Assembly (NCBI GenBank): GCA_024277895.1
Contig: JAJRUH010000181.1
Coordinates: 1-57,945, forward strand
Reading direction: 5' to 3'
DNA from: Bacteroidota bacterium
Lineage (GTDB): Bacteria > Bacteroidota > Bacteroidia > Bacteroidales > JAADGE01
Length of the DNA stretch: 57,945 bases
The notes beneath the pieces were generated by a model that was not told the DNA's origin, made no database searches, and worked only from the letters and a program-made list of their open reading frames with translations. Position numbers and translations under genes: made by a program. Numbering within the stretch: the stretch's first letter is position 1; each line of letters opens with the position of its first letter. This document shows positions 1 through 44,851 of this stretch, in pieces.

Positions 1-690
1 AAATTACTTGGTCGCAACTAAAACCGGTTCAGTATTATATGAAGTTTTTGAATAGTTTAAAATCGTAAAATTACTTCGCACAGATAACTCAAATAACTCA
101 GATTTTTAAATTATTTTGTACTTTCTGTGTAATCCGTGAAATCCGTGTGAAACTATTAACAAAAAATCCGTGTGATATTAATTATGCTGCCTTTTTCAAT
201 AATTATCCCAAGAAAAAAACGCTTTGCCCGATGAAATTACTTGGTCGCAACTAAAACCGGTTCAGTATTATATGAAGTTTTTGAATAGTTTAAAATCGTA
301 AAAGTATTTCGCACAGATAACTCAGATAACACAGATTTTTAAATTATTTTGTACTTTCTGTGTAATCCGTGAAATCTGTGTGAAACTATTAACAAAAATC
401 AGCGCAATCCGTGAAATCCGTGTGATATTAATTATGCTGCCTTTTTCAATAATTATCCCAAGAAAAAACACTTTGCCCGAAGAAATTACTTGGTCGCAAC
501 TAAAAATGGTTCAGTATTATATGAAGTTTTTGAATAGTTTAAAATCGTAAAACTACTTCGCACAGATAACTCATATTTTTAAATTATTTTATACTTTCTG
601 CGTAATCCGTGAAATCCGTGTGAAATTATTCACAAAAATCCGTGCAATTTGAGAAATCCGTGTGATATTTATTAATCTGCCTTTTTCAAA
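1..690. repeat. Tandem repeat array, about 2.9 copies of a 233-249 bp unit (units start at 1, 234, 483); open-ended at the window edge
   Basis: AAATTACTTGGTCGCAACTAAAA... recurs at 1, 234 and 483 with few substitutions. Each unit holds 3-4 nested ATCCGTG/ATCTGTG short repeats. The last unit merges into the 3' end of the CDS that ends at 672. Confidence 0.95.
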
Positions 691-1721
691 GCATCAAAAT
701 ACATTGCAAACGAACGATACAAAAAATGTGTCCACTTTCCGAAAGGAACAATTATTACTGCCCATTGCACAAGTACAATTAAATGTATAAGATACATCCA
801 AAGATTATTTTCAATTAAATCGGCATCAATAAATGTTCGAACAATAAATGCCGTTAAACCCATTAAAAATAACCAAATTACAAAAAACCAATCGCTTGGA
901 TGTGCGTGTCGTGCTAATTCTCTTGATTTTTTAATTCTTTCAAACATAAAAATAAACGTAACGATAAAAATCACGGCACTTTCGGCATAGCCCAAATAAA
1001 TTACGAATTTACTTTCGGTTCCGAACCAATCTAAAACTACGGTTGTGAAAAGCAGCGACAAATAACCGATTACCAAGATTAAATGTTCAAACCAACGAAC
1101 TTGGTTATCATCGCAACCCAATGCACGTTTTTGTGTAAACATATGAACGATTAATTCCCGAAGTTTTTTAAAATAAGTTGAAAATTTAACTTTTACTCCC
1201 GATTTTATAATTGTATAATACCACATTCGAATAATATTAGGTAATAAAATAACCGTAAAAACTCCGGCTATTGCAAACATTTCAAAATAATGCCCTATAT
1301 GCATAATATGTTCAACATTATATTTTTCATAAGAGCTGAAACCGAGAACTGCAGCTATTACCAAAATAAAAAAAGTAATACTTACGGGTAAGGATTTATA
1401 CAACAACCCAGAAAGTCTCGTCCAGTCGTATTTTGCAGTTAACCAACGCCTTAAAGTCATCATAAGCTCGCCCGGGAATGCCTGACGCGGGCAAGTTTCG
1501 CTGCACTCGCCGCAATAATAGCATAACCAAGGTTTTAATGAAGTTTTTAGATTTTCTTCTAAGCCCAAGACACTGAAACGCACCATTTCACGCGGGAAAG
1601 AATCGTCTTCGGTTGACAGCGAACATACGGCGGTGCAATGTCCGCAATTATAACAGGCATTCAAATCAAATGCTCCGTATTTTTTTAATTCATCTTTAAA
1701 ATCAGGATTTATTTTAGCCAT
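672..1721 (-). CDS. QmoC-like membrane iron-sulfur protein (HdrC-type 2x[4Fe-4S] domain fused to NarI/HdrE/DsrM-type cytochrome b domain)
   Basis: 349-aa ORF. N-terminal Cys motifs CYNCGHCTAVC and CYYCGECSETCP are followed by about six hydrophobic helices with conserved His (HIMHIGHYFE, FEHLILVIGY, LIHLIVLVQW). The ATG at 1721 overlaps the stop of the upstream ORF by 8 nt. Confidence 0.75.
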   Translation of the reverse strand: MAKINPDFKDELKKYGAFDLNACYNCGHCTAVCSLSTEDDSFPREMVRFSVLGLEENLKTSLKPWLCYYCGECSETCPRQAFPGELMMTLRRWLTAKYDWTRLSGLLYKSLPVSITFFILVIAAVLGFSSYEKYNVEHIMHIGHYFEMFAIAGVFTVILLPNIIRMWYYTIIKSGVKVKFSTYFKKLRELIVHMFTQKRALGCDDNQVRWFEHLILVIGYLSLLFTTVVLDWFGTESKFVIYLGYAESAVIFIVTFIFMFERIKKSRELARHAHPSDWFFVIWLFLMGLTAFIVRTFIDADLIENNLWMYLIHLIVLVQWAVIIVPFGKWTHFLYRSFAMYFDALKKAD

Positions 1722-1998
1722 TGTCTTTCAATTTATAATAAAAATATTCGTCCATATCGTCAATTCCGTCAACTTCAACAAAGCCGTATTTCAGCAAAGA
1801 CATTAAATAATACAAAATTTCGTCTTTGGGTTTGTTAATAACTTCCGACAATTCGGGAACCGTCATTTTTTTGTCTTTCAAAGCTTTTAAAATTTCTTTT
1901 TTTATTTTGACAAAATATTTCAAATTATCTTTTACTTTTTGCGGGACTTGTCGCTTTTCTTTCAGTATTAAAACTGTTTTTTTATTTCCGTTACTCAT
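1714..1998 (-). CDS. Small winged-helix-like protein of unknown function embedded in the Hdr/Qmo-like operon
   Basis: 94-aa ORF with no Cys. The segment MTVPELSEVINKPKDEILYYLMSLLKYGFVEV resembles an ArsR/MarR-type wHTH. It is tightly packed between the HdrA-like and QmoC-like genes. Confidence 0.55.
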   Translation of the reverse strand: MSNGNKKTVLILKEKRQVPQKVKDNLKYFVKIKKEILKALKDKKMTVPELSEVINKPKDEILYYLMSLLKYGFVEVDGIDDMDEYFYYKLKDNG

Positions 1999-2028
1999 AA
2001 TTCAAATTTTAAAAAAGTAAGCAATTTT

Positions 2029-3957
2029 TCAACTTTCCGCCAAAACACTTATCATACTCTCAATTTCAACATCCGTAAATCCGTCCATATCTATCGAATT
2101 GCTTTCGCAAACAGGCAGACACATTCCGCAACCTTTACAAACAGAAGCATTAATTTCGGCAATCTCTTTTCCGTTTTCTTTAATCATTTCTATTGCATCA
2201 TAAGGGCAGGCTTCGGCACATTTTCCGCACCAAATACAAGTTTTTTTATCAACTTTTGCAATAATAGGTTCAAGTGCAAGTTCTCCTTTATTAACAATAG
2301 AATAAGATTTTGCGGCTGCCGACAATGCAGAATTCATTGATTCCATAATATTTTTAGGTCCCTGACAAGCTCCTGCAATAGTAATTCCGTCAATAACGGT
2401 TTCTACGGGTCGCAATTTCATATGAATTTCATTATAAAATCGGTCTCTTCCTTTCGGAATTTTTAAAACATCACCTATGGTACAATCATTTCGAGGTTCC
2501 ATTCCGGTAACGAGAACAACCAAATCGGCATCAACTTCAATTTCTCGTCCGCCGGTTAAAATGTCTTCGATTTTAACATTGGTTTTCCCGTTCACTTTTT
2601 CAACAACAGGCGGGTCGTATTCGTAAGACTGAAGAAAAATATCTCCGAGACGCGATGCTTCGTCATAAATAACTTCTTGTTTTCCGTAAGTTCGTATTCC
2701 TCTGTTGAAATGATAACTGTTTATTCCTTTATATTTTTTATGGGTTAAGATTGAAGTATAAAGCGTTGCAGTACAGCAATATCTTGAACAATATTTATTA
2801 TCGCCGTCAACTTGTCTGCTTCCTACGCAATAGATATATGCAATATCTTTAATTTCTTTTCCTTTATAAATCAATTTATCGTCACACATATTAATAATAC
2901 GACGAAATTGGGGTAAGGTAACAACATTTCCGATTCCCCAACCAAACTCTCCGTCTTTGGGTTGATAAGGGTCAAAACCCGTAGCAGCTAAAATTGAACC
3001 TACGGTTAAATCTAATATTTCTTCTTTTTGAGAAAAGTCTATACTCGAACAAACCTTTTCACATTCTCCGCAACGCGTACAATTTTTATTGTCAATTGTC
3101 GGAATTTGAGGATATTCGCTGTCATAATTTTTGTAAATTGCTTTTCGTTTTGTAATATTAAAGTTAAAATCATCCTCTACTTCAACAGGACAAACTTCTA
3201 TTGCTTTTTTCAATTCTTCCGGATTACATTCTTTTTTTATAAAGCGCGGTGTTATTTTTACTTTTATTTTAAAATTTCCGATACTTCCGCCTTTTTCAAT
3301 TACTTCGGCACCAGTAAAAAGAGTAACGTTAGGATGCTCGTGAATTTTTTCATACAAATGTGTTACAAGTTCTTTCCCCGTAATATCAGCTCCGCACAAA
3401 TAATCTAACTGCGAAACTCTTCCTCCCGTAAAATGCTCTCGTTCAATTAAATATACCTGAATTCCTAAGTCTGCCAATTCTTTTGCAGCACGCATTCCGG
3501 CAACACCTGCACCTAATACGGCAATTGATTTTTGAGCTTTTATTTCTATAGGTTCTAAAGCTGCAGATTCTTTAACTCGTGCAATTGCAGCTTTAACAAT
3601 TTTTATGGCTTTCTCCGTTGCCGCTTCTTTATTATCGGAATGTGCCCAAGAAACTTGTTCTCGAATATTTGCGTGTACATAATTATATTTATTTAATCCA
3701 CCTCGTTCCGCACAGGCACTGAAAGTCGGATAATGTAATTTCGGAGAACAAGAAGCAACAACCAATCCGTCAAGTCCTTTCTCGGCAACATCATCAGAAA
3801 TTTGCTTTTGACTCGAATCGGCACAAGCAAACATTGTATCAAGCGATATTTCAACACCTTCAATATCTTTTACGGCTTCCCTAACCTTTTTAACATCAAC
3901 ATAATCAGAAATATTACCGCCGCAATGACAGATATAAACACCTATTTTAGTCTTCAT
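2029..3957 (-). CDS. HdrA/QmoB-like FAD and iron-sulfur flavoprotein (heterodisulfide reductase subunit A family)
   Basis: 642 aa. Has an N-terminal CHCGGNI motif, the GAGVAGMRAA FAD fingerprint, the HdrA signature CVGSRQVDGDNKYCSRYCC, and ferredoxin motifs CTRCGECEKVC, CIWCGKCAEACP and CKGCGMCLPVC. Confidence 0.85.
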   Translation of the reverse strand: MKTKIGVYICHCGGNISDYVDVKKVREAVKDIEGVEISLDTMFACADSSQKQISDDVAEKGLDGLVVASCSPKLHYPTFSACAERGGLNKYNYVHANIREQVSWAHSDNKEAATEKAIKIVKAAIARVKESAALEPIEIKAQKSIAVLGAGVAGMRAAKELADLGIQVYLIEREHFTGGRVSQLDYLCGADITGKELVTHLYEKIHEHPNVTLFTGAEVIEKGGSIGNFKIKVKITPRFIKKECNPEELKKAIEVCPVEVEDDFNFNITKRKAIYKNYDSEYPQIPTIDNKNCTRCGECEKVCSSIDFSQKEEILDLTVGSILAATGFDPYQPKDGEFGWGIGNVVTLPQFRRIINMCDDKLIYKGKEIKDIAYIYCVGSRQVDGDNKYCSRYCCTATLYTSILTHKKYKGINSYHFNRGIRTYGKQEVIYDEASRLGDIFLQSYEYDPPVVEKVNGKTNVKIEDILTGGREIEVDADLVVLVTGMEPRNDCTIGDVLKIPKGRDRFYNEIHMKLRPVETVIDGITIAGACQGPKNIMESMNSALSAAAKSYSIVNKGELALEPIIAKVDKKTCIWCGKCAEACPYDAIEMIKENGKEIAEINASVCKGCGMCLPVCESNSIDMDGFTDVEIESMISVLAES

Positions 3958-3984
3958 TTATTCGTATTTTGAAATTATGAAATA

Positions 3985-5304
3985 TTATACAGTCACTTTA
4001 TTTTGTGAAACTTTTCGAATATAATTTGCTGCTTCGCTTGATGCAGCTCCTGCTGAAAGTATAGAATCCGGAATATCCATAGGTCCCGAAGCCGTGCCGG
4101 CAACAAACACTCCGTCAACAGTTGTCATAGCCGGACTTTCAAGCGGGCTGGATTGAGAAACATAATTAAACGGATCTAATTCTAATTTTCTGTTTGTAAA
4201 CAGTCCGGTAATACCTTCATTAGGCAAAATCCCTACGGAAAGAACAACCATATCGTGTTCGGTTTCGGTAACTTTTCCCGTATTTATATCTTCATATCTT
4301 AAAATCAGATTACCGTCTTCTTTTTCGGTAATTTTAGCAACTTTGCCTTTTACAAATTCAACTCCCATTGATTGTGCCTGAGCATAAAACTCGTTAAACC
4401 CTTTACCGAATGCTCTGATATGCAGATAATAAAGCGTAATATCCGCCATCGGCAACGCTCCCATCAGCAATTGTGCTTGTTTTGTGGAATACATACAACA
4501 AACTTGTGAACAAATAGGAGTCCCTACGGTTTTATCCCTGGAACCCGTACATAAAATATATGCAATATTGTCGGGCATTTTTCCGTCACTCGGTCTTAAA
4601 ACCGTGTTAAAAGGTCTTGTTGGTGCAAGTTGTCTTTCCATTTGCATAGAAGTAATAACATTTTTAAACCTTCCGAAACCGTAACGCGGAATTAAGGTCG
4701 GGTCAAACAGCTGAAAACCGGTAGCTGCAACAACTGTTTTACAGGAAATTGTATATTTTTCTTCAGTTTGAGTAAAATCTATACAATGCGTAGGACAAGC
4801 TCTTTCACAAGCTCCGCATAAAGTGCAATTTTCAATATCAATTGCAGCAGCACGCGGACTGGCAATACTAAACGGAATAAATGCAGCTTTTCTGCCCGCC
4901 AAACCATATTGATATTCGTCTTCAACATTAACGGGACAAGCCTCTTCACACAATTGACATCCCGTACAATCTTCAACGACAACATATCTCGGCTGTGTTG
5001 TTATAAGAGCTTCAAAAGTTCCGTCATCTTTTTGAATAATATCGGATGCTTCGGTACTTGTTAAAACAGTTATATTCGAGTGCCTTGCAATTTCGGAAAC
5101 TTTCGGTGTCGTAATACATGCCGAACAATCTAAAGTAGGAAAAACTTTACTTAACATTATCATTTTTCCTCCGACCGTTAAATCTTTATCAATCAGTAAA
5201 ACTTTGTTTCCTAAATTCGCAAGATTTAAAGCCGCTTCACCTCCGGCTATTCCGGCACCAATAACTAATGCATCATATTCTTTTATTTTTTGATTGTCTT
5301 GCAT
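3985..5304 (-). CDS. HdrA/QmoA-like FAD and iron-sulfur flavoprotein
   Basis: I chose the ATG at 5304 (MQDNQKIKEYDALVIGAGIAGG) because it abuts the stop of the upstream gene. The ORF-track start at 5385 lies inside that gene. Has the FAD fingerprint GAGIAGGEAA, ferredoxin motifs CTGCQLCEEACP and CTLCGACERACP, and the HdrA signature CTGSRDKTVGTPICSQVCC. Confidence 0.85.
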   Translation of the reverse strand: MQDNQKIKEYDALVIGAGIAGGEAALNLANLGNKVLLIDKDLTVGGKMIMLSKVFPTLDCSACITTPKVSEIARHSNITVLTSTEASDIIQKDDGTFEALITTQPRYVVVEDCTGCQLCEEACPVNVEDEYQYGLAGRKAAFIPFSIASPRAAAIDIENCTLCGACERACPTHCIDFTQTEEKYTISCKTVVAATGFQLFDPTLIPRYGFGRFKNVITSMQMERQLAPTRPFNTVLRPSDGKMPDNIAYILCTGSRDKTVGTPICSQVCCMYSTKQAQLLMGALPMADITLYYLHIRAFGKGFNEFYAQAQSMGVEFVKGKVAKITEKEDGNLILRYEDINTGKVTETEHDMVVLSVGILPNEGITGLFTNRKLELDPFNYVSQSSPLESPAMTTVDGVFVAGTASGPMDIPDSILSAGAASSEAANYIRKVSQNKVTV

Positions 5305-5306
5305 CT

Positions 5307-5714
5307 TTAATTTGTTTTTTGTGTTACAAGATATTCCGTAAAGTTTTTCATTTGTTTTACGAATGCTTCGCTGCAAACAGAACATATGGCAGCCATTCTC
5401 AGTTTAGCCGGTTCAATACCCTTTTCTTTAAGCATTTCTTGTGTTCGTTGAACAACAACACCTGTTTTTTCGGTACAAGATTCTCCGTAAGGACAATCCG
5501 TACCGTCGGCAGCTATAAACACCCCGTCAAAACCCTGTTCAAATGCTTTCAAAATCCAGCGCGGCTTTACGGCACTCGAACAAGGTATCGGAATGGTATA
5601 AACACGAGGCGGATAATGCAATTTCAGCAAGCCTGCCATATCTATAGCCGGATCCGAAATTTTTTCGGTTGAGAAAACAAGTATTTTCGGCAAATCATTT
5701 CCCGATAAATTCAT
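5307..5714 (-). CDS. MvhD/FlpD-like hydrogenase iron-sulfur subunit family protein
   Basis: 135 aa with a Cys pattern (IPCSS, GTDCPYGESC, ICSVCSE) and size typical of the FlpD/MvhD domain. It sits directly upstream of the HdrA-like genes. Confidence 0.7.
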   Translation of the reverse strand: MNLSGNDLPKILVFSTEKISDPAIDMAGLLKLHYPPRVYTIPIPCSSAVKPRWILKAFEQGFDGVFIAADGTDCPYGESCTEKTGVVVQRTQEMLKEKGIEPAKLRMAAICSVCSEAFVKQMKNFTEYLVTQKTN

Positions 5715-5715
5715 T

Positions 5716-5967
5716 TTATCCCTTTTTTACATAAATTTTAAAATATCCGCTTTCTTCAACAGTTCCGAGATATTCGTGTTTTTTCTTAGTTGCCCATTTC
5801 GGAATGTCTTTTTTGGTTCCTTCATCGGCAGATAAAACTTCTAAAATATCTCCGCTTTTAATTTCTCCCATTGCTTTTTTTGCTGCCAATAATGGTCCGG
5901 GACAAGATGTTCCTCTTGCATCAACGCTTTTATTTACTTTTAAACTTTTTAATTCTTCAGTTGTCAT
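5716..5967 (-). CDS. tusA: TusA/SirA family sulfurtransferase (sulfur carrier)
   Basis: 83 aa with the active-site CPGP loop (DARGTSCPGPLLAAKKAM). Confidence 0.85.
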   Translation of the reverse strand: MTTEELKSLKVNKSVDARGTSCPGPLLAAKKAMGEIKSGDILEVLSADEGTKKDIPKWATKKKHEYLGTVEESGYFKIYVKKG

Positions 5968-6033
5968 AATTTTTTATTTTATATATTTATAATATGTTTT
6001 AATTTTATAGCATTACAATTGATTTTATTTATT

Positions 6034-6582
6034 TTAAATAAACAATTGCATACTGCTTTCGCCGGCATCAGCTAAAAATGTTGCTACACCGGCATAACCC
6101 AAATTAGGATAATCTATCATTTCTTCTTTTTTAAAACCCATTAAATCCATTGACATCGTACAAATATCTATATCGATGCCAAGTTCACCGGCAACAGCAA
6201 GAAGTTCATCAAGTGAAGAAACATTATTATGTTTCATAATTCCCTTAATCATATATTTACCTATGCCCTGCATATTCATTTTAGAAAGTTTTAATTGTCC
6301 TAATCCCTTAGGGAGCATAGTCCCGAACATTCTGGCTGTTACATCCTTACCTTTAGCTTGTTTCATATGTTCTTTTCTTAATGCAGAAATTGCCCAAAAA
6401 GTAAAAAACATTTTTACCTTAGTATCCATAGCTGCAGCTCCGACAGCGATAATAAATGCTGCCAGCATTTTATCCAAATCATCGGACATTACAACCATCG
6501 TAAGTTGATCTTTTCGAGAATATTCCAATACATCAACCTTTTTTTCAAGTTTTTCCAACCTTTGTTCTATTGTTTCAAACAT
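6034..6582 (-). CDS. DsrE/DsrF/DrsH-like family protein (DrsE_2 type)
   Basis: Motifs MVVMSDDLDKMLAAFIIAVGAAAMD, FFTFWAISALRK, ICTMSMDLMG and a C-terminal LFI. I prefer the ATG at 6582 over the GTG at 6585. Confidence 0.8.
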   Translation of the reverse strand: MFETIEQRLEKLEKKVDVLEYSRKDQLTMVVMSDDLDKMLAAFIIAVGAAAMDTKVKMFFTFWAISALRKEHMKQAKGKDVTARMFGTMLPKGLGQLKLSKMNMQGIGKYMIKGIMKHNNVSSLDELLAVAGELGIDIDICTMSMDLMGFKKEEMIDYPNLGYAGVATFLADAGESSMQLFI

Positions 6583-6585
6583 CAC

Positions 6586-7014
6586 CTATATAAATAAATG
6601 AACATCAGATTCTTGAGCAGCGGTAATACATTCACCGATACCGACAATATCATCCGTAATATCAACAAAATCCGAAACTTTATCAGCACCCCAAACTTTT
6701 CCGGCAAGCCCGCAAATATGAACTTTTACATTTGCCAATGATTTAGCTTCTCTGAAAAACTCAAGCCAAGTTTTTACTTTCAAATTTTCTAACGATTTCA
6801 GAAATTCTTCTTTTAATTCAACATTTTCGGCCATATTTAGTTTTTTCGGATCATCGGCAATATCTTTTCTGAAAGCTCTTGCTCCTTGTAACAGGACATA
6901 AATATCAACATCCATATCATCAGCAACGGCTCCGCTTAAAATAACTCCTGCAGCAGTTAATTTATCAATGCTTCCCGAAAAAAGCACCATACACATTTTT
7001 TTATTTTCTTCCAT
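6586..7014 (-). CDS. DsrE/DsrF/DrsH-like family protein (DrsE_2 type)
   Basis: Motifs MCMVLFSGSIDKLTAAGVILSGAVADDMDV, HICGLAG and a C-terminal HLFI. I prefer the ATG at 7014 (MEENKK) over the TTG at 7050 because a -7 promoter box overlaps 7048-7055. Confidence 0.8.
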   Translation of the reverse strand: MEENKKMCMVLFSGSIDKLTAAGVILSGAVADDMDVDIYVLLQGARAFRKDIADDPKKLNMAENVELKEEFLKSLENLKVKTWLEFFREAKSLANVKVHICGLAGKVWGADKVSDFVDITDDIVGIGECITAAQESDVHLFI

Positions 7015-7107: not shown

Positions 7108-7127
7108 AATGTGATATATTTCACATT
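7108..7127. promoter_or_regulatory. Perfect CRP/FNR-family palindrome AATGTGA-TATATT-TCACATT in the divergent promoter region
   Basis: Two 7-bp perfectly complementary arms with a TGTGA-N6-TCACA core. It lies between the operon start (7014) and the Crp/Fnr gene start (7184). Confidence 0.7.
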
Positions 7128-7154: not shown

Positions 7155-7162
7155 TATATTTG
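7155..7162 (+). promoter_or_regulatory. Candidate -7 promoter box TATATTTG for the Crp/Fnr regulator gene
   Basis: Matches TAnnTTTG 22 nt upstream of the ATG at 7184. It overlaps the TTG start proposed by the ORF track (7160), which argues against that start. Confidence 0.45.
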
Positions 7163-7183
7163 GAAAAATATAGATATTTACTT

Positions 7184-7864
7184 ATGAAAAGGTTTGATTG
7201 TTCATTATGTGTTCTTAAATCGGATGCTGCAAAAAATTTATCAACCGGGGAATTAAACTTGATGAATGAAAGTTGCGTTGAAGTAAATTTCAAAAAAAAT
7301 GAAGTAATTTTTAAGCAAAATGCCCTGTCATCCAATATTATTTATTTGCAAAGCGGAATGGTTAAATTGATTATTGAAGGTCCTTTACGCAAGCAGATTT
7401 TAAAAATTAAAAAAGCACCTTGCTATTTGGGATTACCGACTACAATGGGTGATAAAATTAATCATTATTCTGCTGTTGCAATTCTTCCGACACGTACCTG
7501 TTTTATTGACATAAAAACTTTTAAAGAATTGTTGAGACTTAATCCTGATTTTTCTTATGAAATAATTACGGAATTATGCAAAAATGAACTCGAACAATTT
7601 CACAGATGCGTAAACTTGGTTCAAAAACAAATTTTCGGAAGATTTGCAAATAATCTTTTACAATTTGCGGAAGACTTATTTCAATCCGATGAATTTGATC
7701 TTCCGCTGAATCGAAATGAAATTGCGGATATGGTTTGTACCTCAAGAGAAACAATAAGCCGAATGTTTACAGAACTTGCTGACGAAAATATTATTAAAGT
7801 AAACGGAAAAAAAATAAAAATTCTTAATAAAGAAATGCTGAAAAAAATTCGTGAAAACGGATAA
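7184..7864 (+). CDS. Crp/Fnr family transcriptional regulator
   Basis: An N-terminal cNMP-binding-like barrel plus a C-terminal HTH (RNEIADMVCTSRETISRMFTELADENII). It has an N-terminal CSLC plus two further Cys. Confidence 0.85.
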   Translation: MKRFDCSLCVLKSDAAKNLSTGELNLMNESCVEVNFKKNEVIFKQNALSSNIIYLQSGMVKLIIEGPLRKQILKIKKAPCYLGLPTTMGDKINHYSAVAILPTRTCFIDIKTFKELLRLNPDFSYEIITELCKNELEQFHRCVNLVQKQIFGRFANNLLQFAEDLFQSDEFDLPLNRNEIADMVCTSRETISRMFTELADENIIKVNGKKIKILNKEMLKKIRENG

Positions 7865-7904
7865 GTCAAAACAAAGAAATATCTCTAACCTGAAAAAAAT
7901 TAAA

Positions 7905-8948
7905 ATGAAATTAACAAAATTACTAATCGTATTATTTTTACTTATGACTTTTCAAAAAACTTTTGCACAATTTCCGGAAGGAGTAAATTTCATCAATGCA
8001 AAACCTAATACCGTCACAACTTTTTCGGGAAATTTATCTTCCGGAAAATTCATAAATGACTTAAGTTGGGCATCAAAGAGTTCGGTTGCGTGTTTTCCCG
8101 CTACACAAAATAAAAAATTTACCGGCAAACACGTATTACACGGTTTTAAAATTCCTCCTTATTCGGAAGTCTATGTAAGTGTTATTCCGAAAGAAAGGAA
8201 TAAAAATTTCAGTATTTACGGATACCAAGTCGGAGCAAACAGCTATCCCGTGGTTCCGAATTTAACTTCCTGCGTTTCATGCGAAGCCGAACACAAGTGG
8301 GATTACAAAAAAGCCGGGAAAACACAAGACCATACTCGAACAATTCGATTTAATTCCACAAATCACCCTTACAATATTTTTATAGGAGTAACAGGTGCCG
8401 ACGGGCTTGCCGAAGGAGAATACACATTGGAAATAAACCTTAAATCAAGAGTTCAAAACAAAGAAGAACAAAAACCGCTTAAAATGTATTCCGCTAAAAG
8501 CGTAAAAGGCAAAACCGTTGCATACAAAGGAGATTTGGCTGACGGAGTAAAAATTCACGATTTAAGATGGGCATCAAGAAGTTCGGTTGCGTGTTTTCCC
8601 GCTACGCAAAATCATAAATTTACGGGGAACCACATAATTTACATTACCGAAATTCCGCCGCATTCTAAAATGGACATAACAGTTATTCCCGACGATAAAA
8701 ACAAAAATATGAGCATTTACGCATATATGGTCGGATTAAACAACAATGCCATGGTTCCGAATTTATCTTCTTGCGTTACCTGCGAGGCAGAACATAACCG
8801 GGACTACAAAAAAAGAGGTAAAACACAAGATCATACCAGAACAGTACATTTAAATGCAATAAACAATCCCTACAAAGTTGTTATAGGGGTTGCCGGAGCA
8901 GACGGATTAACCGAAGGAAGTTTTATTTTGAAAATAAAAACCGAATAG
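7905..8948 (+). CDS. Secreted hypothetical protein made of two tandem Cys-containing repeats of about 150 aa
   Basis: The ATG at 7905 gives a signal peptide (MKLTKLLIVLFLLMTFQKTFAQ). Internal duplication is visible: DLSWASKSSVACFPATQNKKFTG / DLRWASRSSVACFPATQNHKFTG, and NLTSCVSCEAEHKWDYKKAGKTQDHTRT / NLSSCVTCEAEHNRDYKKRGKTQDHTRT. Confidence 0.7.
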   Translation: MKLTKLLIVLFLLMTFQKTFAQFPEGVNFINAKPNTVTTFSGNLSSGKFINDLSWASKSSVACFPATQNKKFTGKHVLHGFKIPPYSEVYVSVIPKERNKNFSIYGYQVGANSYPVVPNLTSCVSCEAEHKWDYKKAGKTQDHTRTIRFNSTNHPYNIFIGVTGADGLAEGEYTLEINLKSRVQNKEEQKPLKMYSAKSVKGKTVAYKGDLADGVKIHDLRWASRSSVACFPATQNHKFTGNHIIYITEIPPHSKMDITVIPDDKNKNMSIYAYMVGLNNNAMVPNLSSCVTCEAEHNRDYKKRGKTQDHTRTVHLNAINNPYKVVIGVAGADGLTEGSFILKIKTE

Positions 8949-12283: not shown

Positions 12284-13672
12284 TTAAATATGAATAACCT
12301 CTCCGTAAGCCGCTGCCGCCGCCTCCATAATTGCCTCCGACATTGTAGGATGCGGATGTATTGATTTTATTAAATCGTGCCCTTTTGCTCCGAGTTTTAA
12401 AGAAACTACGGCTTCGGCAATCATTTCCGTTACGTTAAGTCCCACAAAATGTGCTCCGACCAACTCGTCGGTTTTTGCATCAAAAATAAGTTTGATAAAA
12501 CCGTCACGGTTGCCTGCTGCGGTAGCTTTTCCGGATGCCGTATAAGGAAATTTTCCGATTTTTACTTCGTAACCCTTTTCAATTGCCTGTTTTTCCGTTA
12601 AACCGACAGAGGCAACTTCGGGTGTGGTGTAAACAGCTCCGGGAACTTTGCCGTAATCTACGGGAGGCGGATTTAATCCCGCTATTTTTTCAACACAGGT
12701 AATTCCTTCTGCGGAAGCAACGTGTGCAAGTGCTTGTCCGAGAACAATATCGCCTATGGCATAAACGCCTTCAATGTTTGTTCTGTAATACTCGTCAACT
12801 TTTATTTTTCCTTTTTCAAGTTCAATACCGGTTTCTTCCAAACCTATATTTTCCAAATTCGGAACAACACCGACGGCAGACAAAACAATATCTGCTTCAA
12901 GCGTTATTTCTTTTCCTTTTGAATTAACGAAGGCAATACATTTTTCGCCGGAAATATCGACTTTTTCCACTGCCGAAGATACCATAACTTTTATTTTGGC
13001 TTTTTTAAGCGACCTGCCTATTTGTTTTGAAACATCTTCATCTTCAAGTGGTAATACATTGGGTAAAAACTCGACCAATGTAACTTGTGTTCCTATTGAA
13101 TTATAAAAAAATGCCAATTCGGTTCCTATTGCTCCGGAACCGACTACTATCATACTTTCGGGTTGTTTTTTGAGAGTTAATGCTTCCCTGTATCCTATTA
13201 TTTTTTTGCCGTCTTGTTTTAAATTCGGCAGTTGTTTTGATCGTGAGCCGGTTGCCAAAATAATGTGTTTTGCCGTATATTTTTCAATATTTCCTTCGGT
13301 ATCGGCAACTTCAATCGTATTTTTCCCGGCAAGTTTCCCGAAACCTTGCAATACGGTAATTTTATTTTTCTTAAACAAATATTGAACACCTTTGCTCATT
13401 TGCCCGGCAATTCCTCGGCTTCTTTCAATTATTTTTGAAAAATCGGCTTTATAATTTTCAACACTTATTCCGTAATTTTCGGAATGTTTGATATAATCGT
13501 AAACCTGTGCACTTTTAAGCAACGATTTTGTGGGAATACATCCCCAATTTAAACAAACTCCGCCTATTTCGGCTTTTTCGACAACGGCAACATTCATTCC
13601 GAGTTGCGATGCTCTTATTGCGGCAACGTATCCGCCGGGCCCGCTTCCTATAATTATTATGTCGTAATTCAT
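12284..13672 (-). CDS. lpdA: Dihydrolipoyl dehydrogenase
   Basis: Motifs IIIGSGPGGYVAA, the redox-active disulfide GGVCLNWGCIPTK, and C-terminal HPHPTMSE. Confidence 0.93.
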   Translation of the reverse strand: MNYDIIIIGSGPGGYVAAIRASQLGMNVAVVEKAEIGGVCLNWGCIPTKSLLKSAQVYDYIKHSENYGISVENYKADFSKIIERSRGIAGQMSKGVQYLFKKNKITVLQGFGKLAGKNTIEVADTEGNIEKYTAKHIILATGSRSKQLPNLKQDGKKIIGYREALTLKKQPESMIVVGSGAIGTELAFFYNSIGTQVTLVEFLPNVLPLEDEDVSKQIGRSLKKAKIKVMVSSAVEKVDISGEKCIAFVNSKGKEITLEADIVLSAVGVVPNLENIGLEETGIELEKGKIKVDEYYRTNIEGVYAIGDIVLGQALAHVASAEGITCVEKIAGLNPPPVDYGKVPGAVYTTPEVASVGLTEKQAIEKGYEVKIGKFPYTASGKATAAGNRDGFIKLIFDAKTDELVGAHFVGLNVTEMIAEAVVSLKLGAKGHDLIKSIHPHPTMSEAIMEAAAAAYGEVIHI

Positions 13673-13762: not shown

Positions 13763-14605
13763 CTAAACTGCTTTCAAACTCAAATCCAAACTTTTAATTT
13801 GATGTGTTAATGCTCCTACGGAAACAAAATCGACACCGCATTCGGCATAACTTCTGATAGTTTCGAGAGTGATGCCTCCGGAAGACTCGGTTTCGTATTT
13901 TCCGGCAATCATTTTGACGGCTTTTTTTGTGTCTTCAACACTGAAATTATCAAGCATAATTCGATGTACTTTTCCTACTTTCAAAACTTCGTTTAGCTCA
14001 TCAAAATTACGAACTTCAACTTCAATTTTTATGTTTTTGTTCTTTTTTTTAAGATAATCGACAACTTTGTTAATTGCTTTTTCTATGCCTCCGGCAAAAT
14101 CAATATGGTTGTCTTTGAGCATCACCATATCGTAAAGTCCCATTCTGTGATTTGTTCCGCCGCCGATTTCTACGGCAAGTTTTTCGATATGTCTTAATCC
14201 CGGAGTTGTTTTTCGGGTATCGAGAACTTTGGTCGGCAAATCTTTGATAATTTCGGCATATTTTGCCGTTTGCGAAGCAATTCCGCTCATTCTTTGCATA
14301 AAATTCAGCAGCAAACGTTCTGCCTGCAAAATGGAAATTACTTTTCCGGAAACAGTAAAAGCAATATCGCCCGGTTTAATTTTTGTTCCGTCTTTAAGAA
14401 AAATTTTCATCTTTAAATCGGGGTCAATTTTTCTGATAATTTCTTTTGTAATTTCGACACCGGCAAGTATTCCTTCTTCTTTCACGAGAAGTTTTACTTT
14501 GCCTTGTTCCGTTTCCGGAATGCACGAAAGCGACGAATGGTCGCCGTCGCCGATGTCTTCGGCAATTGCCAAATCAATTAATTTGTCGATAAATTTATTT
14601 GTCAT
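13763..14605 (-). CDS. nadC: Nicotinate-nucleotide diphosphorylase (carboxylating)
   Basis: 280 aa with typical QPRTase motifs (TRKTTPGLR, MLDNF, SSGGIT). Confidence 0.92.
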   Translation of the reverse strand: MTNKFIDKLIDLAIAEDIGDGDHSSLSCIPETEQGKVKLLVKEEGILAGVEITKEIIRKIDPDLKMKIFLKDGTKIKPGDIAFTVSGKVISILQAERLLLNFMQRMSGIASQTAKYAEIIKDLPTKVLDTRKTTPGLRHIEKLAVEIGGGTNHRMGLYDMVMLKDNHIDFAGGIEKAINKVVDYLKKKNKNIKIEVEVRNFDELNEVLKVGKVHRIMLDNFSVEDTKKAVKMIAGKYETESSGGITLETIRSYAECGVDFVSVGALTHQIKSLDLSLKAV

Positions 14606-15326
14606 CCTCAGTTTTTTTTAATTTTTCAGCTAATAATTTATTTAGTTTGTCGTGAAATTGCACAAAATCATCCGGAAATTTATCAAATGCAGCGACCTCA
14701 ATAATTGCAACAGTTTCATTACCGGATAAAATCGGAATAAATAACAGACTTTTAGGAGAACCTGCACCCAAACCGGAAACAACCTTAATATAATCTTCCG
14801 GAATATCGCTTATTTGTTTTATTTTTTTATTTTTTGCAACTTGCCCCGAAATTCCTTCCCCTTCAGAAAAATCGTGAATTTTATTGCTGTTATACATTGC
14901 ATAAGTTGCATTAACTTTAAATTTATCTTTATCTTTTACATAAACCAAACCCTGAACAATATAAAATTCCTTTGCAAAAGCTTTTAAAATAAGTTCTGAA
15001 AATTTTTTATCCGGTCTTGGTCTTTCAAGTTCAGAAATAATATTATTGATTTTAGTTTCTGTTTCGTTTATATCTTTTTTAATTGTCAACTCAATATCTT
15101 CTTTTTCTTTCGCTGTACCTTGCTTTTTTATGTATATTTTTTCCGTTTGAAACTTAAAAGTAAAAACAAACAACAATAAAACAGACAAAAACAATCCGCC
15201 GAAATAAATAAAGATTTTATTTTCATCCAAACTCCCGGAGGTTTCGGGAAAAATAAGTCGAATAAAAAATAAAGATGAAATAAAAAGAACAGTCGATACT
15301 ATTTTTCTTACAATATTTTTAGACAT
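14595..15326 (-). CDS. Membrane protein with two N-terminal TM helices, a charged helical linker and a C-terminal GAF-like domain
   Basis: 243 aa with hydrophobic segments at the N terminus and a GAF-like C terminus (GEGISGQVAKNKK...LLFIPILSGNETVAIIEVAAF). It overlaps cheB by 8 nt and nadC by 11 nt. Confidence 0.65.
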   Translation of the reverse strand: MSKNIVRKIVSTVLFISSLFFIRLIFPETSGSLDENKIFIYFGGLFLSVLLLFVFTFKFQTEKIYIKKQGTAKEKEDIELTIKKDINETETKINNIISELERPRPDKKFSELILKAFAKEFYIVQGLVYVKDKDKFKVNATYAMYNSNKIHDFSEGEGISGQVAKNKKIKQISDIPEDYIKVVSGLGAGSPKSLLFIPILSGNETVAIIEVAAFDKFPDDFVQFHDKLNKLLAEKLKKTEDDK

Positions 15327-15891
15327 TACTATTAATATTTAAAATATATTTGATAATATTTTGCGAAGATAAAATATTTTTCGTTCCCGAAATTTTAATT
15401 GCCGCTTCCGGCATTGTTGCAACAATTGCATCTTTCGGGTCTTGAGCAACGGCAATACCGCCGAAATCAATAACATCTTTCAATCCGACTGCTCCGTCAC
15501 TATTTGCACCGGACAATACAATGCCGAGCATATTATTATTAAAAGAATATGCTGCAGAACTTAAGGTTACATCAATTGACGGACGAGAATGGTTTACAAC
15601 ATCTTCCGTTGAGAGTGCAAAAGTTTTATCCGGTTCAACATACAAATGGTAATTTGCCGGAGCAATATAAACTCTGCCGGATAAAATTTTTTCTTTATCA
15701 AACGGTTCCTGAACCGGTAATTGCGATTTAATTGTCAGTGCATCGGTAAAACCTTCTTTAATATGCTTTAAGCGATGCAAAACCAAAATTAATGTGTGAG
15801 GAAAATTTTTAGGTAATGCTTCCAATATTTTCGTAACAATTTGAAAACTGCCGGCAGACCCTCCTATAACTATGTATTTAATTTCAGACAT
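15319..15891 (-). CDS. cheB: CheB-type protein-glutamate methylesterase, catalytic domain only (no receiver domain)
   Basis: 190 aa with motifs IGGSAGS, HSRPSIDV and SGANSDGAVGLKDV..GG.AVAQD. Confidence 0.78.
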   Translation of the reverse strand: MSEIKYIVIGGSAGSFQIVTKILEALPKNFPHTLILVLHRLKHIKEGFTDALTIKSQLPVQEPFDKEKILSGRVYIAPANYHLYVEPDKTFALSTEDVVNHSRPSIDVTLSSAAYSFNNNMLGIVLSGANSDGAVGLKDVIDFGGIAVAQDPKDAIVATMPEAAIKISGTKNILSSQNIIKYILNINSNV

Positions 15892-15894
15892 TTA

Positions 15895-16713
15895 TTAAAA
15901 AATTCGTTTCTTGTAAACCGATAATTTTGATGTTATTTTTTTAAACTTTCCGGACATTTGTCCTAAAATTTCTTTCTCTCCGAGAATCAGATATCCGCCT
16001 TTTTTTATACTTGCATTGATTTTGGGCAATACAGTGCTTTGCAAATCTTCATTAAAATAAATCAGGCGATTACGAAACAAAACCAGATCAAACTCTGAAA
16101 TATACTGTTGATTCATTATCTTTTCCTTTTTAAAATTCACATTTCCCCTGTAAAAATGATTAATTCTCATTTGATTTGTTTGCCCGATAAAAACATCTTC
16201 CGGATTTAACACATTATTAAGTAACTCAATATTTTTTACACACTTTTTTAAATCTTGTTGATTAAATTTTCTGTTTTTGATAAAATTTTCATTTTCACTT
16301 AAAGGGTAAGAAACTGTAATCGTAACACCCGAAGATTGGAATAATCCGAGAAAAAACATCAAAGAATAAACTTCTTCACCGCCGGTACAACAGGGAATAT
16401 GTATATTAACGTCTTTTTTTAAAAGCAGTTTAGGAAAAATCTTCTCATTTAAATAGTTCCACAATTCGGCATCTCTGAATAGTTCTGTTTGAGGGACAAA
16501 GAGAAACCTTACAAAATCGGAAACAAATTTGTCAGATTGATTAAACCGATAAATTAAATCATCAACATTAAAAACTTTTTGAGTTTTCATAAAAAGAATA
16601 ATTCTTCTCCTTTTAAATGAAAAAGCATAGTCAATAAAATCAAAATCCGAAAGTGATTTTATTTCAGAATAGACTTGATTGACATCCGGTACGAATATTT
16701 TTAATTCAGACAT
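15895..16713 (-). CDS. cheR: CheR-type protein-glutamate O-methyltransferase
   Basis: 272 aa with motifs TELFRD, CCTGGEEVYS and DLVLFRNRLIYFN. Confidence 0.8.
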   Translation of the reverse strand: MSELKIFVPDVNQVYSEIKSLSDFDFIDYAFSFKRRRIILFMKTQKVFNVDDLIYRFNQSDKFVSDFVRFLFVPQTELFRDAELWNYLNEKIFPKLLLKKDVNIHIPCCTGGEEVYSLMFFLGLFQSSGVTITVSYPLSENENFIKNRKFNQQDLKKCVKNIELLNNVLNPEDVFIGQTNQMRINHFYRGNVNFKKEKIMNQQYISEFDLVLFRNRLIYFNEDLQSTVLPKINASIKKGGYLILGEKEILGQMSGKFKKITSKLSVYKKRIF

Positions 16714-23700: not shown

Positions 23701-24046
23701 AAACCTGAATACCTGTAGTATCCCTTTTTAAATAACCGACATCATTAACACATCCCGCATAAATTTTATTATCTGCTGTATCCGAATACATCGTTAAAGG
23801 CATCGCCGGTGTCGGAATAATATCCCAGGCAGAACCGTCAAAACTCAAAATTCCTTTTTGATTTGCAAAAAACATATGTTGCTTTTTACCTTGAATAATA
23901 AACCAATTATTAAGTTTATATTTATTATTTAACTTATAATTTGTAATAAACGGGCTTCCTTCCTGAGCTGAAACCGAAAAAGTTATAATTATAAAAAATG
24001 CAAAAACCAAAATTCGGTTTAAATATACACTGTGTTTCAATTTCAT
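20753..24046 (-). CDS. Sensor phosphatase: periplasmic two-component-regulator propeller/Y_Y_Y region, one TM helix, coiled coil, C-terminal SpoIIE/PP2C domain
   Basis: The ATG at 24046 (MKLKHSV) gives a signal peptide. The PP2C motifs are DIVSGDFYW, GDCTGHGVPGAMLSM, DGMDIALC, SDGYSDQ and TDDIIVMGVRI. Confidence 0.8.
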   Translation of the reverse strand: MKLKHSVYLNRILVFAFFIIITFSVSAQEGSPFITNYKLNNKYKLNNWFIIQGKKQHMFFANQKGILSFDGSAWDIIPTPAMPLTMYSDTADNKIYAGCVNDVGYLKRDTTGIQVFVSIKNNSENIGKVIEISSLGNKLIVVSENFITIYNTDDYTVIKQILNFKNNKRINRIINQSDQIFFVTEDNTFYKLKNDSIYFRRIKNKKNIGKIVFDFPISKTKTLIGTTNNKLYYFGGKSVWQFNIRDQKYLDESILTNAVLLTNTQIALSTLIGGILIIDSKTRKTVKNINYSSGLPDNEIFAIGKDDNNGLWLSHGLGISRIDFSVPVKLYNSYPGIEGRLLSVINLNNTIYVGTNESLFFLEELDAHKRARLIENEIKTVSKKLKTKKRMKAKEDAKKKGLFAGLQKKIKDFVSPDNTINLSERKRNSLIRKRKLLGMQSVSHSYKKIENLNDRCKILVPYGNELLAGGNNGVYLIKDKEAEHIISDRYINNIIQSKNNSNLFYVCTNSGLLILEFNEEEYKVSEVNDLKGNNVTSVSANDTAVWVGTAGNIYLLNFGNTEIKSYKINNKYEEPTLIQEFENTIYVLLPSKVLAYSEKQDSIIVLESKELSFIKTQPDVLWMNENNSWISLIYPKNYDCNNNIYLNLFDNIEYLYVDKLNDTWIIDDKNNLYKINNLNVSFYNPKQNLFIKTVTNQKGKKYSLTDISLDADENNIKITLSAPFFIKQDAVEYQYFLEGLMKKPSEWGKNNEISFPYLPHGKYIFHVKAKNILNSISEEEKITFFVKEAFWEKDWFLISSGLLLVLIVVLIIKLRERKLKKNQKLLEQKIKERTKTIEEQRNQIVKNHKSIKDSIVYAKRIQQAMMPSKNVLDKSLTDYFVFFKPRDIVSGDFYWIKQIREYTVYAVGDCTGHGVPGAMLSMLGISFLSEIVTKVRFDTPDEFLNRLRKKIKSSLNQTTAGIESKDGMDIALCIIDHEDMQLQFAGAFNPAYIIRDGELTELKANRNPIGIHHKENPFQYQKFELKKNDMIYTFSDGYSDQFGYNNQKFNKRNFKKLLLKIYNKPMQEQKEILKEILTKWKGEFEQTDDIIVMGVRI

Positions 24047-24068
24047 AAATATAATATTAAACAACCTG

Positions 24069-42661: not shown

Positions 42662-42670
42662 TTTATAGTA

Positions 42671-42707
42671 CGCTGATTATTATGATTGTTATGATGTTTT
42701 AAGATTT
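42671..42707. repeat. Left arm of an imperfect inverted repeat abutting the GxxExxY ORF start
   Basis: CGCTGATTATTATGATTGTTATGATGTTTTAAGATTT matches the reverse complement of 43095-43130 at 28 of 36 aligned positions by hand count (15 of the first 17). Confidence 0.65.
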
Positions 42708-43094: not shown

Positions 43095-43130
43095 AATCAT
43101 AAGAAATCTTAATAATCATAAAAATCAGTG
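43095..43130. repeat. Right arm of the inverted repeat abutting the GxxExxY ORF stop
   Basis: AATCATAAGAAATCTTAATAATCATAAAAATCAGTG. See the left arm at 42671-42707. Confidence 0.65.
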
Positions 43131-43161
43131 TCCTGTTAAATCATTAAATAAATTAAAAAAA

Positions 43162-44331: not shown

Positions 44332-44340
44332 TTTAGATAT

Positions 44341-44394
44341 GAGTATTGAGATTGGAGAGAAATAATCAGATAAACATCTCACATCTCAATACTC
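44341..44394. repeat. Hairpin upstream of the four-helix-bundle ORF: GAGTATTGAGAT ... ATCTCAATACTC
   Basis: 12-bp perfect arms at 44341-44352 and 44383-44394. Confidence 0.75.
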
Positions 44395-44847: not shown

Positions 44848-44851
44848 AAAA

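Follow-up and report, generated by a model that had tools for sequence, protein, structure and literature searches.

An operon joining Hdr/Qmo-type subunits to TusA and DsrE sulfur carriers in Bacteroidota and other phyla

We analysed contig JAJRUH010000181.1 (assembly GCA_024277895.1) of a Bacteroidota bacterium from the lineage JAADGE01, a stretch of 57,945 nucleotides referred to here as the window. Near its left end, a minus-strand run of eight tightly packed open reading frames (ORFs; 7014-672) encodes two DsrE-family proteins, a TusA, an MvhD/FlpD-like protein, a short and a full-length HdrA (HdrA_S and HdrA_L), a winged-helix (wHTH) protein, and a QmoC-type membrane anchor. This is a real, widely conserved, and uncharacterised operon for a probable complex of the Hdr/Qmo type in which MvhD is re-purposed and the substrate module is likewise uncharacterised. 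Our best reading, in which we place about as much trust as doubt, is that it encodes a flavin-based confurcating or bifurcating complex joining menaquinone, a low-potential carrier, and sulfane sulfur bound to TusA/DsrE, more likely working towards reduction of that sulfur to H2S than in the opposite direction.

An initial annotation of the window, made from its sequence alone, had described the eight genes. All of them lie where it placed them, and its family assignments (two DsrE, TusA, MvhD/FlpD, two HdrA, and the QmoC-type anchor) were upheld by profile searches. Each motif that it quoted is present: Cx12Cx3CC in both HdrA proteins, CPGP in TusA, and ICTMSMD and HICGLAG in the DsrE proteins. 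It had also not recognised the cluster as a characterised system, and our full-text literature searches likewise found no description of it, only two passing remarks on 'type II Qmo' (PMC10504309) and on 'Hdr system' genes (PMC11129491).

Conservation and variants of the operon

More than 3000 relatives of the QmoC-like protein were found, with at least 120 at 69% or more identity, all from Bacteroidota-type metagenome-assembled genomes (MAGs). We took 80 loci from a scan with a diverse QmoC alignment, using one genome per species, and determined their content by tblastn with nine window proteins. Of the 53 loci whose upstream flank reached 4.6 kb or more, 51 encoded TusA, MvhD, HdrA_S, and HdrA_L in this order 5' of wHTH-QmoC and on the same strand, a recurrence of gene order that is far beyond chance. 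A DsrE gene lay upstream of tusA in 45/47 loci with enough DNA there; in one of the two exceptions, an Anaerolineales locus (L079), it is found downstream of qmoC instead. The gene upstream of tusA was of the DrsE_2 type alone in twenty loci and 2QS7-like alone in twenty-two, and both types were present in three loci and the window, so the second DsrE is no oddity of the window. The module also occurs in Anaerolineales, other Chloroflexota, Planctomycetota, Krumholzibacteriia, and a 'Ca. Kr...' genome, where DsrE often follows qmoC. The initial annotation had made its reading depend on conservation of the tusA/dsrE linkage in related genomes, and this linkage is kept across at least four phyla. 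Genes flanking the unit vary between loci, from which we conclude that it is self-contained. The hosts come from sulfidic habitats (the Black Sea, sulfidic caves, Zodletone-type springs, and Guaymas), and Ancylomarina longa T3-2 (L017) is the only one of those in the set to have been cultured.

The operon had been described as having no HdrB, Apr/Sat, or Dsr partner, and this holds well beyond it. Pfam searches found no HdrB (CCG domain), Apr/Sat, Dsr, or LbpA in the operon or elsewhere in the 58-kb window, where the scan took in about forty other ORFs and found no sulfur enzymes among them. HdrB, AprAB, Sat, Dsr, and LbpA were likewise missing from about sixty related loci.

A paralogous cluster has a different partner. 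Its gene order is HdrA-QmoC-HdrA-MvhD-MvhG-MvhA-HycI in L061-L068, and HdrA_L-MvhD-MvhG-MvhA-HdrA_S-wHTH-QmoC-HycI in L076 and L078. These gene orders show the same HdrAA'-MvhD-QmoC core with a NiFe hydrogenase where TusA/DsrE sit in the window. These loci, from Bacteroidales and other MAGs, join an Mvh-type NiFe hydrogenase to two HdrA proteins and a QmoC-type anchor. By its gene content this cluster is a candidate H2:menaquinone/ferredoxin bifurcating hydrogenase, and it looks uncharacterised itself.

Further variants concern the electron and sulfur ends of the module. Nine loci have, in place of HdrA_S, a 927-aa protein that carries a Fer4_20 plus Pyr_redox_2 insertion (a GltD/NfnB-like, 'HdrL'-type NAD(P)H module); in L081, a protein of this kind has its own gene following qmoC. 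Seven loci (L011, L018, L024, L033, L052, L054, and L080) have an upstream operon extension with some or all of a YeeE/YedE 'sulphur transport' gene, four rhodaneses, and a Porin_O_P porin, though some of the seven are cut off or lack one accessory gene. These extended loci lack the divergent Crp-like gene described below. All four rhodaneses of L018 carry signal peptides or lipoboxes. Anaerolineales have DsrE and YeeE downstream.

The anchor shows variation of its own. In L073, L074, L077, L080, and L084, the soluble subunits are about 55-75% identical to those of the window and QmoC just about 40%; lineages seem to have swapped their membrane anchors. The anchor of L086 has no detectable Fer4 domain and a weak CitB match alone.

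Subunits, regulation, and surroundings

In the Mvh-Hdr complex, HdrA is the bifurcating flavoprotein and MvhD is the point of electron entry from the hydrogenase. HdrC passes electrons on to the catalytic subunit, an exit that QmoC swaps for cytochrome b.

The MvhD-like protein (PF02662, 7e-30) has cysteines C45, C74, C80, and C111-x2-C114, and all five are invariant in 52/52 Bacteroidota sequences. Compared with chain D of 5ODC, it has lost the N-terminal CCxxC and the GC motif and gained a CxxC at the position of the canonical ISASEG. In canonical MvhD (5ODC_D) and all eight hydrogenase-linked MvhDs, a CxxC at the N-terminus and GCxxxDC are present and the C-terminal CxxC is missing, whereas the TusA-linked MvhDs lack the N-terminal motif and have 'AAIC(S/T)VC' in place of 'ISASEG' (54/54). 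When cross-tabulated on the frames of high-scoring segment pairs, the altered cysteine pattern was present in 54/54 TusA-linked and 0/8 hydrogenase-linked sequences. Of these cysteine motifs, L079 from Anaerolineales retains the CxxC alone. This switch is the strongest hint to the site of sulfur chemistry, and we propose that the MvhD-like protein, with its changed cysteine set, may provide a thiol/disulfide (or cluster plus dithiol) site facing TusA/DsrE.

The two HdrA proteins appear to complement each other. HdrA_S aligns to HdrA residues ~142-565 of 8RVV/5ODC (E = 1e-112) and retains the FAD domain, the complete inserted 2x[4Fe-4S] ferredoxin domain, Cx12Cx3CC, and DCSxC (C60 and C63), with the N-terminal and C-terminal HdrA domains missing. 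HdrA_L aligns end to end with methanogen HdrA (residues 3-636 against 4-646 of 5ODC_A, E = 1.6e-136), has HdrA2 as its best NCBIfam match (549 bits), and contains the N-terminal Cys4, FAD, the Cx12Cx3CC cluster, and the C-terminal 2x[4Fe-4S] ferredoxin. It lacks the DCSxC motif, and its inserted ferredoxin domain retains one of two cluster motifs. These cysteine features of both proteins are kept across 50-65 orthologues. HdrA_S thus has DCSxC and no N-terminal domain and HdrA_L the reverse, which fits an obligate HdrA_L/HdrA_S heterodimer. Counted in the alignment, C60/C63 of HdrA_S are the equivalent of C194/C197 in 5ODC_A. Cys197 of one methanogen HdrA presumably completes the N-terminal cluster of its partner; if we are right in this assumption, the complementary losses would indicate an obligate heterodimer with a single electron-input path.

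The initial annotation had listed a 94-aa wHTH ORF. It is present, but is not obviously a regulator. The protein is a weak ArsR/TrmB-type winged helix (HTH_5, 1.5e-5) whose stop codon overlaps the qmoC start by 8 nt. It adjoins QmoC in 74/85 loci, forms an in-frame C-terminal extension of HdrA_L in fourteen loci, and is also found in the hydrogenase-linked cluster L078. Because of the fusions to HdrA_L, it is probably a structural subunit or domain of the complex. We considered a persulfide-sensing repressor of the ArsR/sHdrR type and rejected it as the main role, since the protein contains no cysteine and, in those fourteen loci, is joined to HdrA_L.

The QmoC-like protein aligns along its whole length with the NCBIfam qmoC model, scoring 149 bits (cut-off, 300). 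Its N-terminus (residues 3-97) matches HdrC, corresponding to an HdrC-like 2x[4Fe-4S] domain, with eight invariant Fe-S cysteines in two CxxCxxCxxxC motifs, and about six hydrophobic or transmembrane (TM) segments were found. Four histidines are conserved: H213 is invariant, H313 and H332 are present in at least 90% of sequences, and H274 in most. This set of residues fits two [4Fe-4S] clusters and two haems b. No Qmo structure was found in the PDB.

TusA and DsrE proteins are known to carry persulfide or thiosulfonate sulfur (PMC11094781, PMC4175335), and those of the operon keep candidate cysteines for it. The first DsrE protein matches PF13686 (6e-8) and, more weakly, PF02635 (1e-4), and aligns over its full length with structure 2QS7 (3e-16), which has been identified as DsrE2B (PMC11094781). 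Its candidate active site, Cys101 of HICGLAG, is invariant in 27/27 orthologues. The second matches PF13686 (2e-48), 3PNX (2e-25), and 2QS7 (2e-12), has no hydrophobic segment or TM helix, and contains a single cysteine, Cys141 of ICTMSMD, that is also invariant in 27/27 orthologues. A membrane-anchored DsrE2A was rejected, as its two TM helices are missing from both proteins. TusA (PF01206, 3e-24) has a weaker match to YedF (1e-8). Its single cysteine, Cys22, lies in the CPGP loop, and C-P-G-P is invariant in 53/53 orthologues. In public MAG records the DrsE_2 protein is sometimes named 'NADH dehydrogenase FAD-containing subunit', a propagated misannotation; other labels there include 'hypothetical', '4Fe-4S dicluster domain-containing', 'HdrA family', 'TusA family', and 'DsrE/DsrF/DrsH-like'.

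A Crp-like gene diverges from the operon, and a divergent orthologue is present in 29/42 related loci with enough upstream DNA. Its N-terminal C14-x2-C17 is invariant and C39 mostly conserved, and these cysteines suggest a redox- or sulfur-responsive Fnr-like sensor. Between this gene and the operon lies a perfect TGTGA-N6-TCACA. The corresponding intergenic region holds a perfect site in 26/33 sequences with a divergent regulator (thirty-two related loci plus the window); the remaining seven lack one, with a near-match in most. These twenty-six sites are the bulk of the thirty-four perfect sites in the 1.36 Mb examined. A dedicated Crp/Fnr-type regulator likely acts at this box.

The features are listed in Table 1. 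Gaps within the operon are 3, 66, 1, 2, 27, and 30 nt, in addition to the one overlap. Two possible 5' ORF extensions (TTG 7050 and ATG 5385) receive no support from the lengths of homologues.

Table 1. Genes and sites of the operon and its divergent regulator.
Feature	Coordinates	Strand	Evidence
DsrE2B-type sulfur-carrier protein, 142 aa, soluble	6586..7014	-	PF13686, PF02635, 2QS7
DrsE_2-family sulfur-carrier protein, 182 aa	6034..6582	-	PF13686, 3PNX
TusA sulfur carrier, 83 aa	5716..5967	-	PF01206
MvhD/FlpD-fold protein, 135 aa	5307..5714	-	PF02662, 5ODC chain D alignment
Short HdrA (HdrA_S, 'QmoA-like'), 439 aa	3985..5304	-	8RVV/5ODC alignment
Full-length HdrA (HdrA_L, 'QmoB-like' without fused MvhD), 642 aa	2029..3957	-	5ODC_A alignment
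Winged-helix (wHTH) protein, 94 aa, no Cys	1714..1998	-	HTH_5
QmoC-type membrane anchor	672..1721	-	NCBIfam qmoC, HdrC match, TM/Cys/His
Crp/Fnr-family regulator, divergent	7160..7864	+	cNMP_binding + HTH_Crp_2 (Pfam/NCBIfam)
CRP-type palindrome TGTGATATATTTCACA (TGTGA-N6-TCACA), likely operator	7110..7125	.	site search

The initial annotation had named aprBA-sat or hdrBC in the same transcription unit, just beyond the window edge, as a finding that would refute its reading. No further operon gene (aprBA, hdrBC) was found in bases 1-689 of the window, 3' of the qmoC-like gene, which are a non-coding tandem repeat of about 249 bp (at least 2.7 copies, 86% matches) without an Rfam match. Each repeat unit closes with a copy of the last ~25 nt of the qmoC-like gene (175-215 and 420-460 against 664-700), so the 3' end of the gene and the terminator region have undergone tandem duplication. 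A second repeat, an AT-rich 26-nt unit in 2.4 copies at 5971-6030, occupies the 66-nt dsrE2-tusA spacer, the sole sizeable spacer within the operon, and could be an internal promoter or processing site.

Elsewhere in the window, a 365-aa ORF at 7851-8948 (+) has an N-terminal hydrophobic segment, no Pfam match, and two internal repeats of about 150 aa (…DLSWASKSSVACFPATQN.KFTG.H… is present twice). A dihydrolipoamide-dehydrogenase-type (Lpd-like) pyridine nucleotide-disulfide oxidoreductase lies at 12284-13672 (-), 5 kb from the operon; we dismissed it as an operon partner because it is not kept beside the operon in relatives. A GAF protein, CheB, and CheR are encoded at 14595-16713 (-) with no visible chemoreceptor, and two large SpoIIE-type phosphatase sensor proteins (Y_Y_Y; DUF4154/PAS) at 20753-24064 and 49818-52154 (-). 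Fatty-acid beta-oxidation genes (a FadB-like 3HCDH/ECH fusion, a thiolase, and an acyl-CoA dehydrogenase) are found at 40259-46636 (+), with a PDDEXK_3 nuclease-family ORF between the first two.

Possible function and alternatives

Under the confurcation reading, HdrA_L, HdrA_S, the MvhD-derived subunit, and the wHTH subunit would form a membrane complex, built around an asymmetric HdrA heterodimer, with the QmoC-type anchor, whose two [4Fe-4S] clusters and dihaem cytochrome b would connect the flavins with the menaquinone pool. Sulfane sulfur would be held by TusA and one or two DsrE2B-type proteins as cysteine persulfides or, alternatively, as a TusA-S(n)-DsrE hetero-di/trisulfide. The sulfur would come from polysulfide, S0, or thiosulfate, with uptake in some relatives via the porin, the exported rhodaneses, and YeeE. 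Once loaded, TusA/DsrE would pass it to the CxxC of the MvhD-like subunit, at the docking place of the NiFe hydrogenase in the paralogous clusters. Reduction to H2S would then use electrons confurcated at the HdrA flavin, one from menaquinol and one from ferredoxin, which would act at the inserted ferredoxin domain of HdrA_S, or from NAD(P)H in the HdrL-type variants. The mean of the two donor potentials would lie near that of S0/HS-, making the reaction near-equilibrium and reversible. Complex formation, the partners, the site of the S-S chemistry, and the direction are here what we infer.

The S0/HS- couple lies at about -270 mV, midway between menaquinone and ferredoxin, so a plain quinol:persulfide reductase would run uphill and a confurcating one near equilibrium. 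The initial annotation had proposed a candidate quinol:protein-persulfide (or polysulfide) oxidoreductase; a plain reaction of this kind is energetically implausible with menaquinol at about -75 mV (PMC3333476), and we propose three-partner con/bifurcation instead. Ramos 2012 made a similar argument for Qmo, stating that menaquinol cannot drive its acceptor alone and proposing confurcation with a low-potential partner (PMC3333476). We favour a third, low-potential partner and flavin-based con/bifurcation because HdrA_L has the complete architecture of HdrA, paralogues are linked to a hydrogenase, and relatives include HdrL-type variants.

The more likely direction is towards H2S, sulfur then serving as an electron sink for the re-oxidation of both ferredoxin and quinol. 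Three points favour it: the hosts are fermentative anaerobes, no enzyme for further oxidation is linked, and there is a precedent in Thermotoga maritima. In this fermenter S0 and thiosulfate are reduced in the cytoplasm, and a yeeE/dsrE/tusA unit is induced 42.6-fold by thiosulfate (PMC9431562). Several points weigh against such a reductase. In none of the subunits can a catalytic site for chemistry on S-S bonds or persulfides be recognised (CCG/HdrB domains and Mo are both missing), and the low-potential partner is not encoded in the operon. YeeE import followed by TusA/DsrE is best documented in sulfur oxidisers, favouring the opposite direction (PMC11094781, PMC11582611). The window has no YeeE, rhodanese, or porin genes that would point to a sulfur source in this organism. 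The role of the MvhD-like CxxC is read from a sequence pattern, and the five cysteines of the Bacteroidota proteins could just bind a cluster with different ligands. For all members, the mechanism is drawn from sequence and analogy.

The main rival holds that the same complex runs oxidatively, converting sulfide to persulfide on TusA/DsrE (or oxidising imported sulfane sulfur) and bifurcating the electron pair to menaquinone and ferredoxin. It would then be an anaerobic, energy-conserving counterpart of sulfide:quinone oxidoreductase, used in sulfide detoxification or the supply of reduced ferredoxin. The hydrogenase-linked paralogues would most naturally run from H2 as donor to quinone and ferredoxin, relays from YeeE to TusA/DsrE are established in sulfur oxidisers (PMC11094781), and the hosts live in sulfidic habitats. 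Sulfide detoxification was also the guess of Yadav 2024 for the 'Hdr' genes of Ancylomarina, Labilibaculum, and Lentimicrobiales isolates (PMC11129491), and near-equilibrium energetics allow either direction. However, no HdrB/LbpA, Dsr, Sox, SOR, or persulfide dioxygenase occurs in the roughly sixty loci, so oxidation would halt at the persulfide level and the carriers would saturate. Fermentative heterotrophs need electron sinks rather than donors, and the T. maritima precedent ties yeeE/dsrE/tusA to reduction. We therefore regard the oxidative direction as unlikely, although it deserves to be taken seriously. The operon might instead have nothing to do with sulfur turnover and encode an NAD(P)H/ferredoxin:menaquinone oxidoreductase (a Fix/Etf-like bifurcating module), with TusA/DsrE employed in maturation, repair, or regulation, e.g. 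cluster sulfur supply or redox sensing. The HdrAA'-QmoC core does occur without sulfur carriers in the hydrogenase-linked clusters, the HdrL-type variants have an NAD(P)H module, and there is no recognisable catalytic sulfur site. Against this, TusA is present in 51/53 loci, DsrE is missing from one or two at most, the MvhD cysteine switch tracks TusA linkage perfectly, other Fe-S complexes lack private TusA/DsrE genes, and an operon-level YeeE, four exported rhodaneses, and a porin are hard to explain by maturation alone. We find a sulfur-independent role improbable.

The two other alternatives are harder to sustain. Thiosulfonate (R-S-SO3-) has been shown on DsrE3A/TusA in Metallosphaera, and DsrE/TusA homologues bind thiosulfate (PMC4175335). 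With thiosulfonate on the carriers, the complex could cleave adducts derived from thiosulfate or tetrathionate to sulfite and sulfide, as a ferredoxin-driven cytoplasmic thiosulfate reductase. The YeeE family imports thiosulfate, the T. maritima yeeE/dsrE/tusA genes are thiosulfate-induced, and the very low potential of thiosulfate cleavage would explain an HdrA-type low-potential branch. Nevertheless, the DsrE proteins here are of the DsrE2B rather than the DsrE3A type, no sulfite-handling enzyme is nearby, menaquinol contributes nothing at about -400 mV, and the rhodaneses of the extended operons would already split thiosulfate to sulfite and persulfide, all of which leaves this idea with a small chance. 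The slightest chance of all falls to a genuine QmoABC serving an APS reductase encoded elsewhere in the genome, or to selenium handling related to YedE/YedF. Two HdrA paralogues and an HdrC-HdrE fusion are indeed the Qmo architecture (PMC3333476), some orthologues were named QmoC by JGI, and selenium handling could draw on the weaker YedF match of TusA (1e-8) and on YeeE/YedE relatives near some loci. Yet aprBA/sat are linked in no locus examined, the qmoC equivalog score is half of the cut-off, and the flavoproteins are closer to methanogen HdrA, with 'type II' genes also present in organisms lacking Apr/Dsr (Neukirchen 2023, PMC10504309). TusA itself rather than YedF is the best TusA match, and no selD/Sec machinery is nearby.

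A broader claim, which we put forward tentatively and would not yet bet on, is that these operons encode a new class of sulfur enzyme, respiratory or fermentative, namely a membrane-anchored flavin-based confurcating protein-persulfide (or TusA-DsrE heterodisulfide) reductase with an MvhD-derived CxxC subunit in the catalytic role of HdrB. It would be widespread in anaerobic Bacteroidota, Chloroflexota, and Planctomycetota and account for cytoplasmic turnover of zero-valent sulfur or thiosulfate by 'fermenters' in sulfidic habitats. If the conserved and regulated complex does connect TusA/DsrE with quinones and HdrA bifurcation, Bacteroidota and Chloroflexota of marine sediments, digesters, and sulfidic waters, usually scored as plain fermenters, would take a hidden part in zero-valent sulfur cycling, and surveys with dsr, apr, psr, phs, or sqr marker genes would miss the complex. 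In addition, an S-S substrate would here be handled by an enzyme of the Hdr type that has no HdrB. The same HdrAA'-MvhD-QmoC core plugged into either a hydrogenase or sulfur carriers is a natural experiment, and the system would be a tractable one for the long-standing issue of whether Qmo-type complexes con/bifurcate between quinol and a low-potential partner.

Comparison with known systems

The initial annotation had recognised the QmoABC architecture in this operon, and the comparison is apt in part. Shared with QmoABC (quinone-interacting membrane-bound oxidoreductase), known from sulfate reducers and green sulfur bacteria, are a short and a long HdrA-related flavoprotein, an MvhD module, and a QmoC-type fusion of an HdrC-like 2x[4Fe-4S] domain to an HdrE-like dihaem cytochrome b with a menaquinone link; for QmoABC, too, a third, low-potential partner (confurcation) has been proposed (PMC3333476). 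The flavoproteins themselves are of the HdrA type, nearer to methanogen HdrA, and fit 'type II Qmo' (PMC10504309), not canonical QmoAB. Neukirchen 2023 used this name for qmoAB-like genes closer to hdrA, found in organisms with or without Apr/Dsr and with an unknown role (PMC10504309). MvhD is here a separate 135-aa gene upstream of both hdrA genes with different cysteines, whereas in QmoABC it is fused to the C-terminus of QmoB. The operon also has the extra wHTH subunit, a qmoC equivalog score below the cut-off, and TusA/DsrE as the partner, not AprAB.

MvhADG-HdrABC of methanogens (5ODC, 8RVU, 7BKB) is similar in other respects. HdrA_L corresponds to HdrA domain for domain, the MvhD fold and the HdrC-like domain of QmoC are shared, as is the logic of flavin-based electron bifurcation, and the paralogous Bacteroidales clusters retain even MvhA/MvhG. 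In contrast to the methanogen complex, the system described here has no HdrB, hence no non-cubane CCG clusters and no CoM-S-S-CoB. Its high-potential branch ends in a membrane cytochrome b and quinone, its HdrA would be a heterodimer rather than a homodimer, and sulfur carriers replace the hydrogenase, with no mvhAG genes and with altered MvhD cysteines.

In sHdr-LbpA, a heterodisulfide-reductase-like system of sulfur oxidation with a TusA/DsrE2/DsrE3 relay, Hdr-type genes are likewise coupled to those for TusA and carriers of the DsrE family, and importers of the YeeE/SoxT type and rhodaneses are often present; an ArsR-type regulator is found in some of the relatives here (L083 and L088). However, sHdr needs HdrB1/B2, HdrC1/C2, and the lipoate-binding LbpA, all missing here, where the shdrC1B1AHC2B2 (or B3) and lbpA set is represented by HdrA-type and HdrC-like (QmoC) parts alone; sHdrA (6TJR) has a single cluster and is shorter than a full HdrA, and sHdr has neither QmoC nor MvhD. 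In trisulfide reduction by DsrMK(JOP)/DsrC, too, a small sulfur carrier is the substrate of a membrane-bound, quinone-linked Hdr-related complex. There, the catalytic subunit is DsrK, an HdrD-like protein containing a CCG domain; DsrC, with its two C-terminal Cys, serves as carrier, and HdrA flavoproteins are lacking.

The yeeE/dsrE/tusA units of anaerobes that reduce or disproportionate sulfur (the T. maritima cluster and the YTD cluster) also keep YeeE, TusA, and DsrE-like genes together, but without Hdr/Qmo genes, and the T. maritima reductase is a separate NAD(P)H-dependent flavoprotein. HdrL of Desulfobacterium autotrophicum, an HdrA with an NfnB/GltD-like NAD(P)H module, resembles the 927-aa replacement of HdrA_S in nine related loci; HdrA_S of the window lacks this insertion, and HdrL of sulfate reducers is not linked to QmoC/TusA/DsrE. 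By analogy with these systems, the complex would combine the workings of QmoABC and Mvh-HdrABC and add a sulfur relay like that in sHdr.

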